DNA from: a virus
Taxonomy: Duplodnaviria > Heunggongvirae > Uroviricota > Caudoviricetes
DNA length: 50,145 nt
Reading direction: 5' to 3' (one strand)
Virus record (IMG/VR): IMGVR_UViG_2579778539_000003
In this document: in pieces, positions 29,404 through 48,506 of the stretch
Numbering within the stretch: the stretch's first letter is position 1
Layout of the letters: each line of letters begins with the position of its first letter
Made by a program: the position numbers and the translations under genes
The notes under the pieces: model-generated
What the model saw: only the letters and a program-made list of their open reading frames with translations
Told to the model about the DNA's origin: nothing
Database searches by the model: none

Positions 29404-29610
29404 CTTCATTTTCACTTTTTTAAATCCAACGACAGACGGCTGGCATTTAAGTATTGTGAAATATTATCAAATGTAATCATCATTGATTTACAAAAGATAC
29501 ATTTTGCCCCGAAAGGATTCATGTCAGAAACATCAAAAGATGATGTTCTATACTGGGAACCATGACAACACGGGCATCTAAAGTGAATATGGTTTGTAAT
29601 ATTGTCTACC

Positions 29611-29823
29611 TCAAAGCGCCACTACATGAACAGCGGCAGGACCTTTAGGTCCGTTCTCAATACCAAATTCAACTTCCTGATTCTCAGTTAATGTTTTGAA
29701 ATCGTTGCTCTGAATTGCTGAGAAATGGACAAACACATCTTTGCTGCCATCTTTCGGCGTGATGAAACCAAAACCTTTTTCAGGGTTAAACCATTTCACT
29801 AAACCAGTCATTTTGTTAGACAT
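29611..29823 (-). CDS. cspI: Cold-shock protein CspI
   Basis: 70-aa CspA-family [26 protein letters not shown]... Confidence 0.9.
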
Positions 29824-30185
29824 AATTATTACCTTTTGAAGAAATTAGCCCTTGGGCAGAATGGTCCGAAAAAAAATATCAGAGAGAAAAACCAACAAGG
29901 AAATCTCAAGAGGTACAAATAATAAAATTATAACAATGACTGCTTCAGATAAATTTGTAACAAACCAGAACACCATTAACGCATGATTAACCACCCATAG
30001 CAAGGATTACTTTTGTAAAGAAAAACACAGCAATGAAAGAATAGCTTTATTTATTAATAAAACGTGTCATTCTGATTAAGACCTTTTATCTTACCCTTAA
30101 GATTTCAGGAATTTTGGCTCATGGAAGAGTCCTTTTTATTTAAATTTTACATTCCGCGATGTAAATGTTCCGATTTAATATTACC

Positions 30186-31209
<1,024 letters not shown>

Positions 31210-32131: not shown

Positions 32132-32494
32132 TTGATTTTATTAGTAACAAGTATTTTTTATATTTTAATAATATATTTAAAGCAGATAATAAAAAACCCG
32201 CCTGAGCGGGTTTGAGATTGTGGTGCTTTTTGTGGGAGTCATCCACTTACGCACTTTGTTTTGCCATGCCAGCAGTTAGCTTCTGCTGTAAAACTATTCA
32301 TGCAGCAAACCTGCACTTCACCACAATGGTTAGCATACTTTTCCTGATTAAGATTTTGCCAAATATGCTAGCCATTGTTTCATGTATTGGACCTCCTTAC
32401 TTTTTATTAAAGAGATCCAATATTCACTACTCTGTCCGTATCTCTACTCAGGCATCAGCCTTCTTCGTTATCGTATACAGACGAGCGATGAATT

Positions 32495-32710
32495 TTAATC
32501 AGTAATGATGACATTTGCTGCTGCAGGACCTTTAGCACCACTCTCTATAGAGAAGGTAACCTTTTGACCTTCAAATAAGGTTCGATAATTATCATTCTGA
32601 ATCGCAGAAAAATGCACAAACACATCTTTACTACCATCAACAGGAGAAATAAAGCCGAAACCTTTATCAGCGTTAAACCATTTTACTAAACCAGTCATTT
32701 TATTTGACAT
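32495..32710 (-). CDS. cspB: Cold-shock protein CspB
   Basis: 71-aa CspA-family ORF. Confidence 0.9.
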
Positions 32711-33010
32711 TCTACATTCCTTAACTTGAGCCTTTCGGCATAAATGGTTTGCATAACAGAAACGACTTCGTACTTAATTGGAGAGACTCAAAGAAGGAAT
32801 AAGTGAATAACACCTGAAATGAGAACTGCTTTAGTAAACTACTTCGTATATCGTCTGTTCTTCAAACCGACGCAATCATTAACGCATAGTTGAACATATG
32901 AAGCAATGTTTATTTTAGACATCCAGCCATCTTCAACCCCATCAAAAAACTATAGCTTTCTTCAGGAACGTGTGTATAGTGCGCCAAGTTATCAGTATTA
33001 AGGAATTTTT

Positions 33011-38149: not shown

Positions 38150-39765
38150 ACATTAGCATAGGCTATTTACCATAACGCCTCATTACGCGCACCGCCCAGA
38201 CTGACTCAGCGCGTTTCTGGCATATCCCCGGTAAAACAAGTAACAAACCACCCGAAAATGAACACCAGAAACGCGACTTAAGAATCTACCCTATGAATGG
38301 ATATGCACTCAACCGAATCGATCTTGGTTTCAATCTTTTTTATCGGGATCAGGCTTCTTTTTAGGTAACTTCGGGGGCTTAACTTGCTGATGACTTTGCG
38401 TTCGGCGCGTAAGCCAGGGATGGTCAGCTTTAGGTTTAACATAGTATTTTGAGCGTAAATCAATACGGGCATTATCCACTCGTTCATGGACACTCTTTTC
38501 ATCATCCAGTGGTATAGGCTCCGGGCCATCAACATACTTTTCCCAGCCCAGCGCTTTCCCGTCATACAGAACGTTAATTTCACCGTCAAAGTTCTCGCAT
38601 ACAGTAACAACCGAATGCCTAAGTCGATATCCCCGGCCCTCACTGCGTACCTGAAACGCACTGCTTTTGTACTGGAAAGTGAGATTTTTAGACAGAACGC
38701 GCTTCGCCTGTAGGCTGAAGATATAACCCAGTTCCTCTTCAGAATGGTGCACATCAAGATGAGCATTATCAGTAGTACGAGGCGACGTAGCGAACCGGTT
38801 GTTATAGGCTTCAATAAAGGTCGGCAACCATGCATTTGCTGTTTCAATATCACTGATATTCTGAAGCCGCATTTCTTTGACCAGCCTGTCCTGTAGTGTC
38901 TGATTGGCGCGCTCTACCCGCCCTTTTGCCTGCGGGCTGTTGGCATGGATTGGCTCGATGCCCAGTGTCTTTATCGCACGAGTGAACTGGGTCAGCTCAC
39001 CTTCCCGCTCTGGGTTATTTACCCTGAATATACTGTGTCTATCAGAGTAGAGAGCGAGCGGTACGCCATGATCATTAAGGTAACCCCGGAGGGTTTCCAT
39101 GTAAGCCCGGGTTGTTTCAGCAGGCACAAAACGCAACGCCATCAACGCACTGGTGGCATCATCAATGAAAACGATCAGTGTACATCTGGGGCCTCGATTT
39201 TCAAACCAGTCATGAGGTGAGCCATCAATCTGGATCAGTTCACCGTAAGATGGTCGTCGCATGCGGCGTTGATATATACGGGCAATTTTACGACGGCGTT
39301 CACGCCATAACCCCTCTTCTATCATCCACTTTCTGAGAGTTTCAACGGATAAAGATAAACCGTGTATCTCGCGCAATTTTTCGCACGCAAACGTAGGTCC
39401 AAAATCAGCGTAACGGCCTTTGAGGAGTGAAATTACTGTTGCTCTGAATTCAGTAGAAAAGGAATTATTAGGACGCTTTCCACGTCGGTGGGAAACCAGA
39501 CCAGAAGGCCCTTCATTTCTATACCGTTGCACCAGACGTTTAACCTGCCGAATAGAAATGCCAATGCGTGCCGCAGCTTGTTCCTGAATAATCTGAAGTC
39601 GGTGGAGTTCCTTATGACTCATCGTAACAGTCTCTTTGATCATGAAAAATCCCCCAGAGAATTGTCTGGGGACATTTTAGAATGGTTCAAAGGGGACATT
39701 ACAGCTTGGTGTTAACAATAGCCTGCTTCTCCGTGCCTTTCGGCACGTAAGAGGCTAACCTACAT
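38150..39765 (-). mobile_element. Putative single-ORF IS element (IS481-like); boundaries approximate
   Basis: Encodes a DDE/rve transposase; ends only tentatively placed from weak terminal similarity (TAGG...GCCTC.TTACG.G). Confidence 0.4.
38330..39643 (-). CDS. DDE-type (rve integrase-core) transposase with N-terminal HTH
   Basis: 437-aa ORF; HTH GISIRQVKRLVQRYRNEG; core IQIDGSPHDWF...VFIDDATS...SDRHSIF...; Lys-rich C-terminus. Confidence 0.8.
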   Translation of the reverse strand: MIKETVTMSHKELHRLQIIQEQAAARIGISIRQVKRLVQRYRNEGPSGLVSHRRGKRPNNSFSTEFRATVISLLKGRYADFGPTFACEKLREIHGLSLSVETLRKWMIEEGLWRERRRKIARIYQRRMRRPSYGELIQIDGSPHDWFENRGPRCTLIVFIDDATSALMALRFVPAETTRAYMETLRGYLNDHGVPLALYSDRHSIFRVNNPEREGELTQFTRAIKTLGIEPIHANSPQAKGRVERANQTLQDRLVKEMRLQNISDIETANAWLPTFIEAYNNRFATSPRTTDNAHLDVHHSEEELGYIFSLQAKRVLSKNLTFQYKSSAFQVRSEGRGYRLRHSVVTVCENFDGEINVLYDGKALGWEKYVDGPEPIPLDDEKSVHERVDNARIDLRSKYYVKPKADHPWLTRRTQSHQQVKPPKLPKKKPDPDKKD

Positions 39766-39977
39766 GTGTCTAGCATGAAATTGGCCTCAGATTAATGTTA
39801 AGCGTCTTGCAGGACGCGTAATGTTAACTGGGGCTTTTCTCTATCTGCCGTTGGTGTCCATGCCCGAGGCAGATAGCCTCAAGCACCCGCAGTCATTCTA
39901 CTTAACTAAGATTTCCCCGCAAACCGTTTTTGTCCAGCACAGTAAATATCCAACTAAACCAATGGAGTTCGCTGTAT

Positions 39978-46034: not shown

Positions 46035-48506
46035 ATGAGTAAAGTCTTTATTTGCGCCGCTATTCCTGACGAACTGGCAACAAGGGAAGAAGGCGCTGTG
46101 GCTGTAGCCACAGCCATTGAAGCTGGCGACGAACGCCGTGCTCGAGCAAAATTTCACTGGCAATTCCTGGAACATTATCCGGCTGCTCAGGACTGCGCTT
46201 ATAAATTTATTGTCTGCGAGGATAAACCTGGCATACCCCGCCCTGCCCTCGATTCATGGGATGCTGAATATATGCAGGAAAACCGCTGGGATGAGGAGTC
46301 TGCTTCTTTTGTCCCGGTTGAGACTGAATCCGATCCGATGAACGTCACTTTTGACAAGCTGGCCCCTGAAGTACAGAACGCTGTCATGGTTAAGTTCGAC
46401 ACATGTGAAAACATCACCGTTGATATGGTTATTAGCGCACAGGAATTGTTGCAGGAAGACATGGCAACATTCGACGGACATATCGTTGAAGCGTTGATGA
46501 AAATGCCAGAAGTTAACGCCATGTATCCGGAGCTTAAGTTGCACGCCATTGGGTGGGTTAAGCATAAATGTATTCCTGGTGCTAAATGGCCCGAAATTCA
46601 GGCAGAGATGCGCATCTGGAAAAAACGTCGCGAAGGTGAACGCAAGGAAACCGGAAAATACACGTCTGTTGTTGATCTCGCCCGCGCCAGAGCCAATCAA
46701 CAGTACACTGAAAATTCAACAGGAAAAATCAGCCCGGTCATTGCTGCCATTCATCGCGAATACAAGCAGACATGGAAAACACTGGATGACGAACTGGCCT
46801 ACGCTCTCTGGCCTAGTGATGTGGATGCCGGAAACATTGACGGCAGCATCCATCGCTGGGCAAAAAAAGAAGTTATCGACAACGACCGCGAAGACTGGAA
46901 GCGTATCTCGGCATCAATGCGCAAACAGCCTGATGCCCTTCACTACGACCGCCAAACTATTTTTGGCCTTGTCCGTGAGCGTCCGATCGACATTCACAAA
47001 GATCCCGTAGCACTGAACAAATATATCTGCGAATACCTGACGACAAAGGGCGTGTTTGAGAATGAAGAAACAGACCTGGGCACTGTTGATGTTCTCCAGT
47101 CATCAGAAACACAAACTGATGCAGTGGAAACTGAGGTATCTGATATCCCAAAAAATGAAACCGCGCCGGAAGCTGAACCATCTGTAGAGCGTGAGGGGCC
47201 GTTCTATTTCCTCTTCGCAGATAAGGACGGAGAAAAATACGGTCGCGCAAACAAACTCTCTGGTCTGGATAAGGCACTGGCTGCTGGCGCCACTGAAATC
47301 ACAAAAGAAGAATATTTTGCCCGAAAAAATGGCACATACACGGGCTTACCGCAAAATGTAGATACCGCTGAAGATTCAGAACAACCAGAGCCGATAAAAG
47401 TTACCGCTGACGAAGTAAACAAAATTATGCAGGCAGCCAATATCAGCCAGCCTGACGCCGATAAGTTGCTTGCTGCATCACGTGGTGAATTTGTTGAAGG
47501 GATTAGTGACCCGAATGATCCGAAATGGGTTAAGGGGCTCCAGACCCGCGATTCTGTGAACCAGAACCAGCATGAATCGGAACGGAACTACCAAAAAGCG
47601 GAACAAAACAGTCCAAATGCGTTACAAAACGAGCCAGAAACGAAACAGCCTGAACCAGTAGCGCAACAGGAAGTGGAAAAAGTCTGCACCGCCTGCGGTC
47701 AGACCGGCGGCGGCAACTGCCCTGATTGTGGCGCGGTGATGGGCGACGCAACATACCAAGAAACATTCGATGAAGAGTATCAGGTTGAAGTTCAGGAAGA
47801 TGATCCGGAGGAAATGGAAGGCGCTGAACATCCACACAAGGAGAACACTGGCGGCAATCAGCATCACAATAGCGATAATGAAACTGGCGAGACGGCAGAT
47901 CACCCAATTAAGGTGAACGGTCATCACGAAATCACATCCACCAGCAGGACGTGTGACCATCTAATGATCGACCTTGAAACCATGGGAAAAAATCCTGATG
48001 CCCCGATCATCTCAATAGGTGCAATATTTTTCGATCCGCAAACCGGAGATATGGGACCGGAATTTAGTAAGACTATCGATCTGGAAACTGCTGGCGGAGT
48101 CATTGATCGGGACACCATTAAATGGTGGCTTAAGCAATCACGCGAAGCGCAATCTGCCATTATGACCGATGAAATCCCGTTAGATGATGCACTGTTACAA
48201 TTGCGAGAATTTATCGACGAAAACTCCGGTGAATTTTTTGTTCAGGTTTGGGGAAATGGAGCCAACTTCGACAACACGATTTTGCGCCGTTCATACGAAC
48301 GGCAGGGGATCCCCTGCCCGTGGCGTTACTACAACGATCGCGATGTACGCACAATCGTTGAGCTGGGGAAAGCCATAGACTTCGATGCCAGAACGGCTAT
48401 TCCATTCGAAGGTGAGCGCCATAATGCACTTGATGACGCCCGTTACCAGGCAAAATACGTTTCAGTTATCTGGCAAAAACTGATCCCGAGTCAGGCTGAT
48501 TCTTAA
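46035..48506 (+). CDS. ydfE: Large multi-domain protein with C-terminal DnaQ-like DEDDh 3'-5' exonuclease domain (intact YdfE-like)
   Basis: 823 aa from MSKVFICAA...; Exo I DLETMG, Exo II WGNGANFD, Exo III HNALDDARYQAKY; CxxC...CxxC zinc ribbon and His-rich acidic linker. Confidence 0.8.
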   Translation: MSKVFICAAIPDELATREEGAVAVATAIEAGDERRARAKFHWQFLEHYPAAQDCAYKFIVCEDKPGIPRPALDSWDAEYMQENRWDEESASFVPVETESDPMNVTFDKLAPEVQNAVMVKFDTCENITVDMVISAQELLQEDMATFDGHIVEALMKMPEVNAMYPELKLHAIGWVKHKCIPGAKWPEIQAEMRIWKKRREGERKETGKYTSVVDLARARANQQYTENSTGKISPVIAAIHREYKQTWKTLDDELAYALWPSDVDAGNIDGSIHRWAKKEVIDNDREDWKRISASMRKQPDALHYDRQTIFGLVRERPIDIHKDPVALNKYICEYLTTKGVFENEETDLGTVDVLQSSETQTDAVETEVSDIPKNETAPEAEPSVEREGPFYFLFADKDGEKYGRANKLSGLDKALAAGATEITKEEYFARKNGTYTGLPQNVDTAEDSEQPEPIKVTADEVNKIMQAANISQPDADKLLAASRGEFVEGISDPNDPKWVKGLQTRDSVNQNQHESERNYQKAEQNSPNALQNEPETKQPEPVAQQEVEKVCTACGQTGGGNCPDCGAVMGDATYQETFDEEYQVEVQEDDPEEMEGAEHPHKENTGGNQHHNSDNETGETADHPIKVNGHHEITSTSRTCDHLMIDLETMGKNPDAPIISIGAIFFDPQTGDMGPEFSKTIDLETAGGVIDRDTIKWWLKQSREAQSAIMTDEIPLDDALLQLREFIDENSGEFFVQVWGNGANFDNTILRRSYERQGIPCPWRYYNDRDVRTIVELGKAIDFDARTAIPFEGERHNALDDARYQAKYVSVIWQKLIPSQADS

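Follow-up and report, generated by a model that had tools for sequence, protein, structure and literature searches.

What does the intact form of YdfE, a protein that Escherichia coli K-12 retains only as a pseudogene product, do for a lambdoid prophage? The question is raised by the IMG/VR virus record IMGVR_UViG_2579778539_000003 (Caudoviricetes), whose 50,145 bp, hereafter the window, represent a complete Qin-like lambdoid prophage. Here, a complete coding sequence on the + strand (46,035–48,506 bp, taken from the list of open reading frames, ORFs) encodes an intact YdfE-type exonuclease of 823 amino acids (aa). By its sequence, the protein is a mosaic, in which a scaffold of the RecE/YdfE type bears one of several swappable C-terminal heads, in this case a DEDDh exonuclease domain. 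By descent and position we tentatively regard it as a DNA 3′-end-processing enzyme of a phage recombination module, a reading to which we give slightly less than an even chance. The initial annotation of the window missed both the homology with RecE and the mosaic build, and these are the most informative features of the locus.

The intact multidomain ORF described in that annotation was confirmed. A Shine–Dalgarno sequence GAGG, read directly from the DNA (46,022–46,025 bp, +), lies 9 nt 5′ of the ATG at 46,035 bp, which is also the start annotated for K-12 ydfE. A longer ORF beginning with the TTG at 45,999 bp is possible; the ATG was preferred because it has a ribosome-binding site. All 2,472 bases of the gene (2,472/2,472) are identical to the corresponding gene of phage PhiR42_1 (from ECOR13), and genes with 100% identity, labelled “exonuclease” or “3′-5′ exonuclease”, are present in many E. 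coli genomes as well. The family PHROG 2082 (“exonuclease”) matched the protein end to end (residues 1–822 of 823). The K-12 ydfE pseudogene product is identical to its N-terminus over 256/256 residues and then runs into IS2E, in agreement with the truncation of the K-12 gene by IS2 given in the initial annotation. Membership in the YdfE family was established through this identity and through the domains of the cluster representative P0010, which is 92% identical to the window protein and has precomputed Pfam matches to PF27430 (YdfE_N) and PF27432 (YdfE_C). The 823-aa protein is therefore assigned as the intact Qin-type YdfE. The sequence as such is already catalogued as “exonuclease”, “3′-5′ exoribonuclease”, PHROG 2082 and Pfam YdfE_N/YdfE_C, while our search of the searchable literature found no description of a chimera of RecE scaffold and DEDDh domain, nor of head-swapping at a conserved linker.

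A DEDDh exonuclease domain on a RecE-like scaffold

The C-terminal part of the protein (aa 642–813; 47,958–48,473 bp, +) was matched by Pfam PF16473 (“3′-5′ exoribonuclease Rv2179c-like”) with an E value of 2.4e-67 and a score of 226.5 bits against a cutoff of 27, covering positions 2–177 of the 177 positions of the profile. The three DnaQ-family motifs that had been read from the sequence were found at the claimed places, namely DLETMG at aa 646–651, WGNGANFD at aa 739–746 and HNALDDARYQAKY at aa 796–808. The catalytic set is complete and comprises D646 and E648 (Exo I, D-x-E), D746 (Exo II) and H796 with D801 (Exo III, H-x4-D); thus, the acidic residues, whose loss on alignment would have spoken against a nuclease, were all retained. 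The same pentad was kept in every full-length homologue examined, including the diverged ones sharing 27–60% identity with the window protein, whose DEDDh domains gave phmmer E values of 1e-66 to 3e-96 (2e-132 for the closest representative). The domain was detected in 1292 phage records. As judged from the alignments, the C-terminus is a complete DEDDh exonuclease, and its architecture and family assignment are secure; metal-dependent nuclease activity with 3′-5′ polarity would be expected from the family.

The substrate was approached through the nearest relatives. T4 DexA (8KEL/8KEN) was the only PDB chain matched by sequence (E 1.6e-6), and no other chain, that of Rv2179c included if deposited, was matched even at E ≤ 1. 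The Foldseek search against the PDB likewise placed DexA on top, followed by RNase T and oligoribonucleases, and the ISG20/RNase_T-type profile PF00929 scored 21.4 bits on the protein, below its cutoff of 24. DexA is annotated in T4 as a 3′-5′ DNA exonuclease, and DNA is therefore the probable substrate by analogy with this closest relative. It is quite unlikely, in our estimation, that the protein acts instead as a 3′-5′ exoribonuclease in lytic growth, serving mRNA turnover or the trimming of operon RNAs such as the precursor of the small RNA (sRNA) DicF, which comes from the same transcript. PF16473 was defined by an exoribonuclease, many NCBI copies are named “3′-5′ exoribonuclease”, and RNase T and the oligoribonucleases are close in structure; on the other hand, the sole PDB chain matched by sequence is a DNA exonuclease, the fusion partners and neighbours of the gene all belong to DNA recombination, and K-12 possesses only the IS2-truncated gene, yet its dicF is annotated as a functional sRNA.

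The part upstream of the catalytic domain had been described as about 550 aa with no obvious motif, apart from a zinc ribbon and an acidic His-rich segment. This description did not hold, as aa 262–627 could be aligned with residues 278–592 of K-12 RecE by BLASTP. The NCBIfam RecE model NF007259 also matched aa 246–623 (model positions 271–600 of 877), with 282 bits, far below the equivalog cutoff of 1269, and the PD-(D/E)XK nuclease domain of RecE, PF12684, gave no match in the Pfam scan of the protein. The similarity is not evenly distributed: it rises to near identity at around aa 473 and stays there over a stretch that covers the zinc ribbon and the acidic His-rich segment. Both proteins are extremely acidic, with net charges of −65 for the window protein and −63 for RecE.

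According to the AlphaFold2 model, the scaffold appears to consist of three folded modules joined by disordered segments. The first module (aa 1–205; 46,035–46,649 bp, +), alpha/beta and helical, is specific to YdfE_N. The second, a helical module (aa 245–340; 46,767–47,054 bp, +), has a predicted local distance difference test score (pLDDT) of about 90 and is common to RecE (about residues 278–340), as both BLASTP and NF007259 indicated. It is followed by an acidic segment (aa 341–387; 47,055–47,195 bp, +), which contains 32% Asp + Glu and is predicted to be disordered (pLDDT <50), and by the small third module (aa 388–435; 47,196–47,339 bp, +), which is modelled as beta-hairpins and helices with a pLDDT of about 90. 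For the N-terminal modules no informative structural relative was found. The N-terminal part of RecE improves linear–linear recombineering. Its roughly 560–600 residues are nevertheless still called a “domain of unknown function” (PMC11611040).

Further downstream lies the linker block that is shared with Rac recE (47,459–47,901 bp, +; 78% DNA identity by blastn) and is nearly identical to RecE 455–592 at the protein level. It contains a putative zinc ribbon, CTACGQTGGGNCPDC, located by a regular-expression search at aa 551–565 (47,685–47,729 bp, +). The presence of this motif had been anticipated, although with a spacer of ten residues between its two CxxC pairs, while seven were found (C551-x2-C554-x7-C562-x2-C565). 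The cysteines were kept in RecE and in 101/101 close homologues but were missing from several diverged family members, and the zinc-ribbon fold has to be considered putative as the confidence of AlphaFold2 was low there. The acidic His-rich segment was confirmed as a tether of aa 571–640 (47,745–47,954 bp, +) with 27% Asp + Glu and seven His, predicted to be disordered (pLDDT about 30), and it leads directly to the DEDDh domain.

Exchangeable heads at a conserved linker

The homology with recE breaks off sharply at 47,901 bp (aa 623). The window and a second prophage locus, L004, share 97.6% DNA identity over 45,119–47,901 bp and are unrelated past this position, and the match with Rac recE (78%, 47,459–47,901 bp) ends on the very same base. 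The gene at this point of the second locus (L004:1632–5136) is a natural hybrid of YdfE_N and RecE_C, which is preceded by dicB-ydfD and followed by recT, DUF1187, xis and a Rac-type int; the latter adjoins ttcA. When aa 1–640 were used as the query, the scaffold was found at 97% identity joined either to PF16473 or to the RecE-type PD-(D/E)XK domain PF12684. Proteins of the former kind are 812–826 aa long and form one cluster of 23,183 sequences, those of the latter kind have 900 aa. That such hybrids were assembly chimeras was considered and rejected: they are also present in NCBI genome records (P0009, P0112), and the L004 context is coherent.

The reciprocal arrangement was found as well. 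The 805-aa protein P0128 (locus L009) combines the RecE N-terminus (PF06630) with the DEDDh head, and its gene shares 47,481–48,514 bp of the window at 93.7% identity, that is, from inside the linker to just beyond the stop codon. The same DEDDh cassette has thus been captured by two different scaffolds. Because the homology edges fall in the linker from both sides, we conclude that the conserved linker block is the recombination joint of the mosaic, at which heads are exchanged. Among 1.84 billion cluster representatives, which were searched exhaustively, only 249 related clusters were found. In these, YdfE_N or RecE_N is combined with the middle module and a linker with or without the cysteines, and the C-terminus is of the DEDDh type, of the RecE_C type or formed by a third cassette, about 280 aa long. 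The company of the genes differs with the head. The DEDDh version occurs without an adjacent recT in 5/5 contexts (window, L009, Evi, PPompW and PhiR42_1), and in the two contexts inspected for the PD-(D/E)XK version (K-12 Rac and L004), recT comes after it. Taken at the sequence level, the protein is a mosaic of the RecE/YdfE scaffold with swappable C-terminal heads.

The third cassette is marked by the motif KKSLTDAxKKALSxLGFSADVxLGLYD and was found in L010:5650–7986 (P0129) and in P0134, P0135, P0154, P0168, P0187 and P0189, with further carriers being P0193, P0211, P0231, P0234, P0258 and P0262. It had no Pfam match at normal thresholds, and sequence and profile searches found nothing in the PDB or NCBIfam. 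Just below the threshold, the Pfam family Rad52_Rad22 was matched by seven of the nine members inspected, exactly at the KKSLTDA-type motif. Alignment of the cassette with the N-terminus of human RAD52 by hhalign paired the expected motif, though weakly, at a probability of 2.5%. Homologues that stand alone in phages bear the labels “RAD52-like annealing protein” or “DNA repair protein”, and one third-cassette gene follows a Gam-like gene and precedes Sipho_Gp157, xis and int. Taken together, these similarities are suggestive of a Rad52-type single-strand annealing domain. PHROGs labels the third-cassette proteins “exonuclease”. “RecE-2” proteins “lacking a nuclease domain”, with a role given as unknown, were described previously (PMC12315714), and the carriers of the third cassette are probably the same proteins. 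In another family member, P0201 (703 aa), the RecE N-terminus and part of the linker run straight into RecT sequence; this protein is a deletion fusion or else another head swap that arose naturally.

Operon, prophage context and distribution

The gene order at the right part of the window is dicC and then dicA, ydfA/B/C, DicF, dicB, ydfD, the exonuclease gene, xis and int, with the dicF-dicB-ydfD layout of K-12 Qin. The dicA-type repressor gene (43,891–44,298 bp, +; an ORF with equivalents in PhiR42_1 and K-12 Qin) opens the leftward block, which the exonuclease gene closes. An intact DicF sRNA is encoded upstream in the same operon (45,340–45,391 bp, +; Rfam RF00039, 76.7 bits, gathering score 48). 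The exonuclease gene is immediately preceded by dicB and ydfD (45,566–45,942 bp, +; ORF translations) and immediately followed by xis and int (48,579–50,145 bp, +; ORFs and the PhiR42_1 annotation). No recT or other annealase gene separates the exonuclease gene from xis, and none was annotated anywhere in PhiR42_1, the identical phage, and neither was Gam or Abc2. A crude consensus scan found no sigma-70-like + strand promoter between ydfD and the exonuclease gene.

The DicA-controlled early-left operon ends with this gene, which occupies the recE/exo slot of the recombination module. The initial annotation had placed it in the lambda b/ea region, where accessory defence and anti-defence genes cluster. 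This placement was not supported, because the gene stands at the end of the operon before xis-int and its product shows homology with RecE over the N-terminal two thirds; PADLOC detected no defence system there either. Expression would, from the position in the operon, be expected when DicA repression is lifted.

Further Rfam matches in the window were two leaders of the cspA thermoregulator type, which belong to copies of the prophage cold-shock gene, as well as a sok/hok-type antitoxin RNA and an IS009 RNA (29,584–29,969, 32,479–32,871, 39,717–39,888 and 4,118–4,316 bp, all on the − strand). An insertion-sequence transposase pair, annotated in PhiR42_1 (11,567–12,880 bp) near relBE, hokD and flxA, would lie at about 38,330–39,643 bp of the otherwise Qin-like window.

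The recombination-module reading is favoured because the scaffold is that of RecE, it otherwise bears a recombination nuclease or a probable annealase as its head, and close stand-alone relatives of the DEDDh domain sit in Rec modules. DnaQ-like 3′-5′ nucleases have been reported from lambdoid Rec modules, with sporadic copies “very near int” (PMC12315714). A role in DNA-end processing or recombination would thus be suggested by the company that the scaffold and the stand-alone homologues keep. According to this reading, an acidic, largely non-catalytic RecE-like scaffold with the three folded modules (aa 1–205, 245–340 and 388–435) would be linked by a disordered acidic tether region of about 200 aa, including the CxxC-x7-CxxC motif, to a DEDDh domain of the DexA/Rv2179c family, which would stand in for the PD-(D/E)XK 5′-3′ nuclease of RecE, with no RecT partner encoded. 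When the repression by DicA is relieved by induction or infection, the gene would be transcribed together with dicF-dicB-ydfD, and the C-terminal domain would use two-metal DEDDh catalysis to strip nucleotides from 3′-OH ends, with DNA as the most probable substrate. Targeting, assembly or partner binding would be the contribution of the scaffold, presumably as for its other heads.

Several points weigh against this reading. Cellular 3′-5′ exonucleases usually inhibit recombination (PMC12315714), and the phage has no annotated annealase or Gam, so that “recombination module” is a statement about ancestry and position. The family PF16473 bears the name of an exoribonuclease, and RNase T and oligoribonucleases are among the structural neighbours. 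The role proposed for the acidic N-terminal modules, which have no informative structural relative, is a guess. As the initial annotation stated, the intact form is little studied, and our literature search on ydfE gave incidental mentions only and no functional study. Finally, the gene was inactivated independently in K-12, where it is cut by IS2 (L002:6079–6999), and in the PPompW phages and their Stx2a-converting relatives, which contain a frameshifted version (L012:7001–9468); it is therefore dispensable for maintenance of the lysogen.

These losses, together with the mosaic joints as signs of recent recombination, could also mean that the gene is a functionless remnant of module shuffling, which remains open only as long as the prophage is young. 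Such an origin appears improbable to us. The gene had a match in 4800 of the 5426 complete E. coli genomes, and a copy with at least 80% coverage was kept by 3537 of them; in addition, the catalytic pentad is invariant in the full-length diverged homologues (27–60% identity), and the cassette was captured by two scaffolds.

The wide occurrence of the gene would also suit a prophage defence or superinfection-exclusion nuclease, which degrades invading phage DNA, for example modified DNA as proposed for EcD, or trims the genomes of RNA phages in the manner of the ISG20-like TONDO exonucleases, the scaffold being an auxiliary or sensor part. T4 DexA is the closest characterized relative, and EcD, a DexA homologue of E. 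coli, digested T4 DNA and protected cells expressing it from a plasmid (PMC12153337). Moreover, DEDDh exonucleases of prophages and plasmids equipped with auxiliary domains defend against MS2 and Qbeta (PMC13344964), although that preprint, on TONDO, makes no mention of YdfE, RecE-like or DexA-like proteins. EcD, however, is a different, stand-alone protein: the published primers encode MIDTET… and …TIPETYD, and a search with the primer sequence found no EcD gene in the window. In a MAFFT alignment at 27% identity, where positions are approximate, Tyr and Thr take the places of DexA W152 and D169, the residues proposed to recognize 5-hydroxymethylcytosine. PADLOC assigned the protein to no defence system; apart from a weak effector fragment, its one hit was a Cas-associated DEDDh model of generic type (E 1.8e-5, 23 bits). 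A repressed early operon in which the gene has no detected promoter of its own is an unusual arrangement for a defence gene expressed in the lysogen, and the scaffold is common to RecE and annealase-like proteins. Considering both sides, a defence function is rather unlikely, though it is the main alternative.

The early position of the gene in the operon could alternatively point to an anti-defence or host-takeover enzyme, which, soon after induction, would break down host DNA or small nucleic acids that serve as immune signals or components. The structural neighbours include DEDDh enzymes such as Orn that cleave short oligonucleotides, and DexA scavenges host DNA (PMC12153337). We consider this very improbable: the domain has no close relationship to the known nucleases of the anti-CBASS, anti-Pycsar or ring type, the neighbourhood gives no pointer to such a function, and the long RecE-like scaffold would be left unexplained.

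Seven Chi sites (GCTGGTGG) were present in the window (at 30,788, 34,770, 34,822, 35,355, 35,412, 41,004 and 47,938 bp), compared with 1.5 expected from shuffled sequences. In this count, and in having neither an annealase nor a RecBCD inhibitor annotated, the phage is similar to a class of lambdoid phages described as “no Rec module, Chi-rich” (PMC12315714), whose members typically hold still more sites, 23 in the case of LLS (PMC12315714). One Chi site, at 47,938–47,945 bp on the − strand, is 37 bp from the cassette junction at 47,901 bp, which may be coincidence.

The scaffold was found joined to nucleases of opposite polarity and to a probable annealase, which points to a role independent of the head, such as targeting, assembly or partner binding. 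In its broadest form, this idea would make the N-terminal RecE/YdfE scaffold a general delivery platform for DNA-end transactions, into which a 5′-3′ nuclease, a 3′-5′ nuclease or a Rad52-like annealase is plugged, with the DEDDh version representing an unrecognized, RecT-independent activity. So wide a generalization is speculative and, in our view, rather unlikely. If it were true, one candidate function would be anti-recombination or end protection by trimming 3′-tails, which would suit lambdoid phages that have Chi sites but no Red/RecET and depend on host RecBCD, and another would be that of a nuclease with two uses, one of them the exclusion of other phages. It would also open a direct experimental route to the function of the first 600 residues of RecE, and natural chimeras are on hand for probing the role of the scaffold. 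Most sequenced E. coli genomes carry the DEDDh version. A defined role, be it in processing phage DNA ends, in antagonizing recombination or in excluding other phages, would fill an annotation gap for a very common prophage gene, and uses in recombineering or in the engineering of phage resistance may follow.

Relation to known systems

Among the relatives, Rv2179c of Mycobacterium tuberculosis, the namesake of PF16473, belongs to the same Pfam family, but it is a cellular exoribonuclease without further domains, and its PDB sequence was not matched by phmmer at E ≤ 1. T4 DexA, the closest solved structure, shares the DEDDh fold and the catalytic residues and is likewise a phage-encoded 3′-5′ exonuclease; it differs in being a stand-alone protein of 227 aa from a lytic phage, with about 27% identity and extra loops. 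EcD, also referred to as “HREX” (PMC12153337), is similar to YdfE in that it is a DEDDh exonuclease of the DexA family and has its gene in E. coli genomes. It is, however, a short stand-alone protein of other sequence, for which defence was shown from a plasmid.

Parallels are also offered by the nucleases of lambdoid recombination modules. Bas106_0031 of phage Bas106 is a stand-alone protein that is 59% identical to the C-terminal domain described here and is encoded between erf, ssb, an endonuclease gene and abc2. The class of stand-alone DnaQ-like nucleases, for which phage epsilon34 is a cited example, is reported to belong to lambdoid Rec modules (PMC12315714). Unlike the window protein, which has a scaffold of about 620 aa and no annotated annealase in its company, these nucleases have about 180 aa, no scaffold and an annealase alongside.

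A further related protein is RecE (exodeoxyribonuclease VIII) of the Rac prophage. Both genes occupy the early-left operon slot by xis-int, and the proteins have a homologous middle module and linker, a nearly identical zinc ribbon with the acidic His-rich tether, and extreme acidity. They differ at their two ends. The first 205–260 aa are of the YdfE_N type in the window protein and of the Exonuc_VIII type (PF06630) in RecE, and the head of RecE is the 5′-3′ nuclease PF12684, with recT following the gene, whereas YdfE carries a DEDDh head and is not followed by recT.

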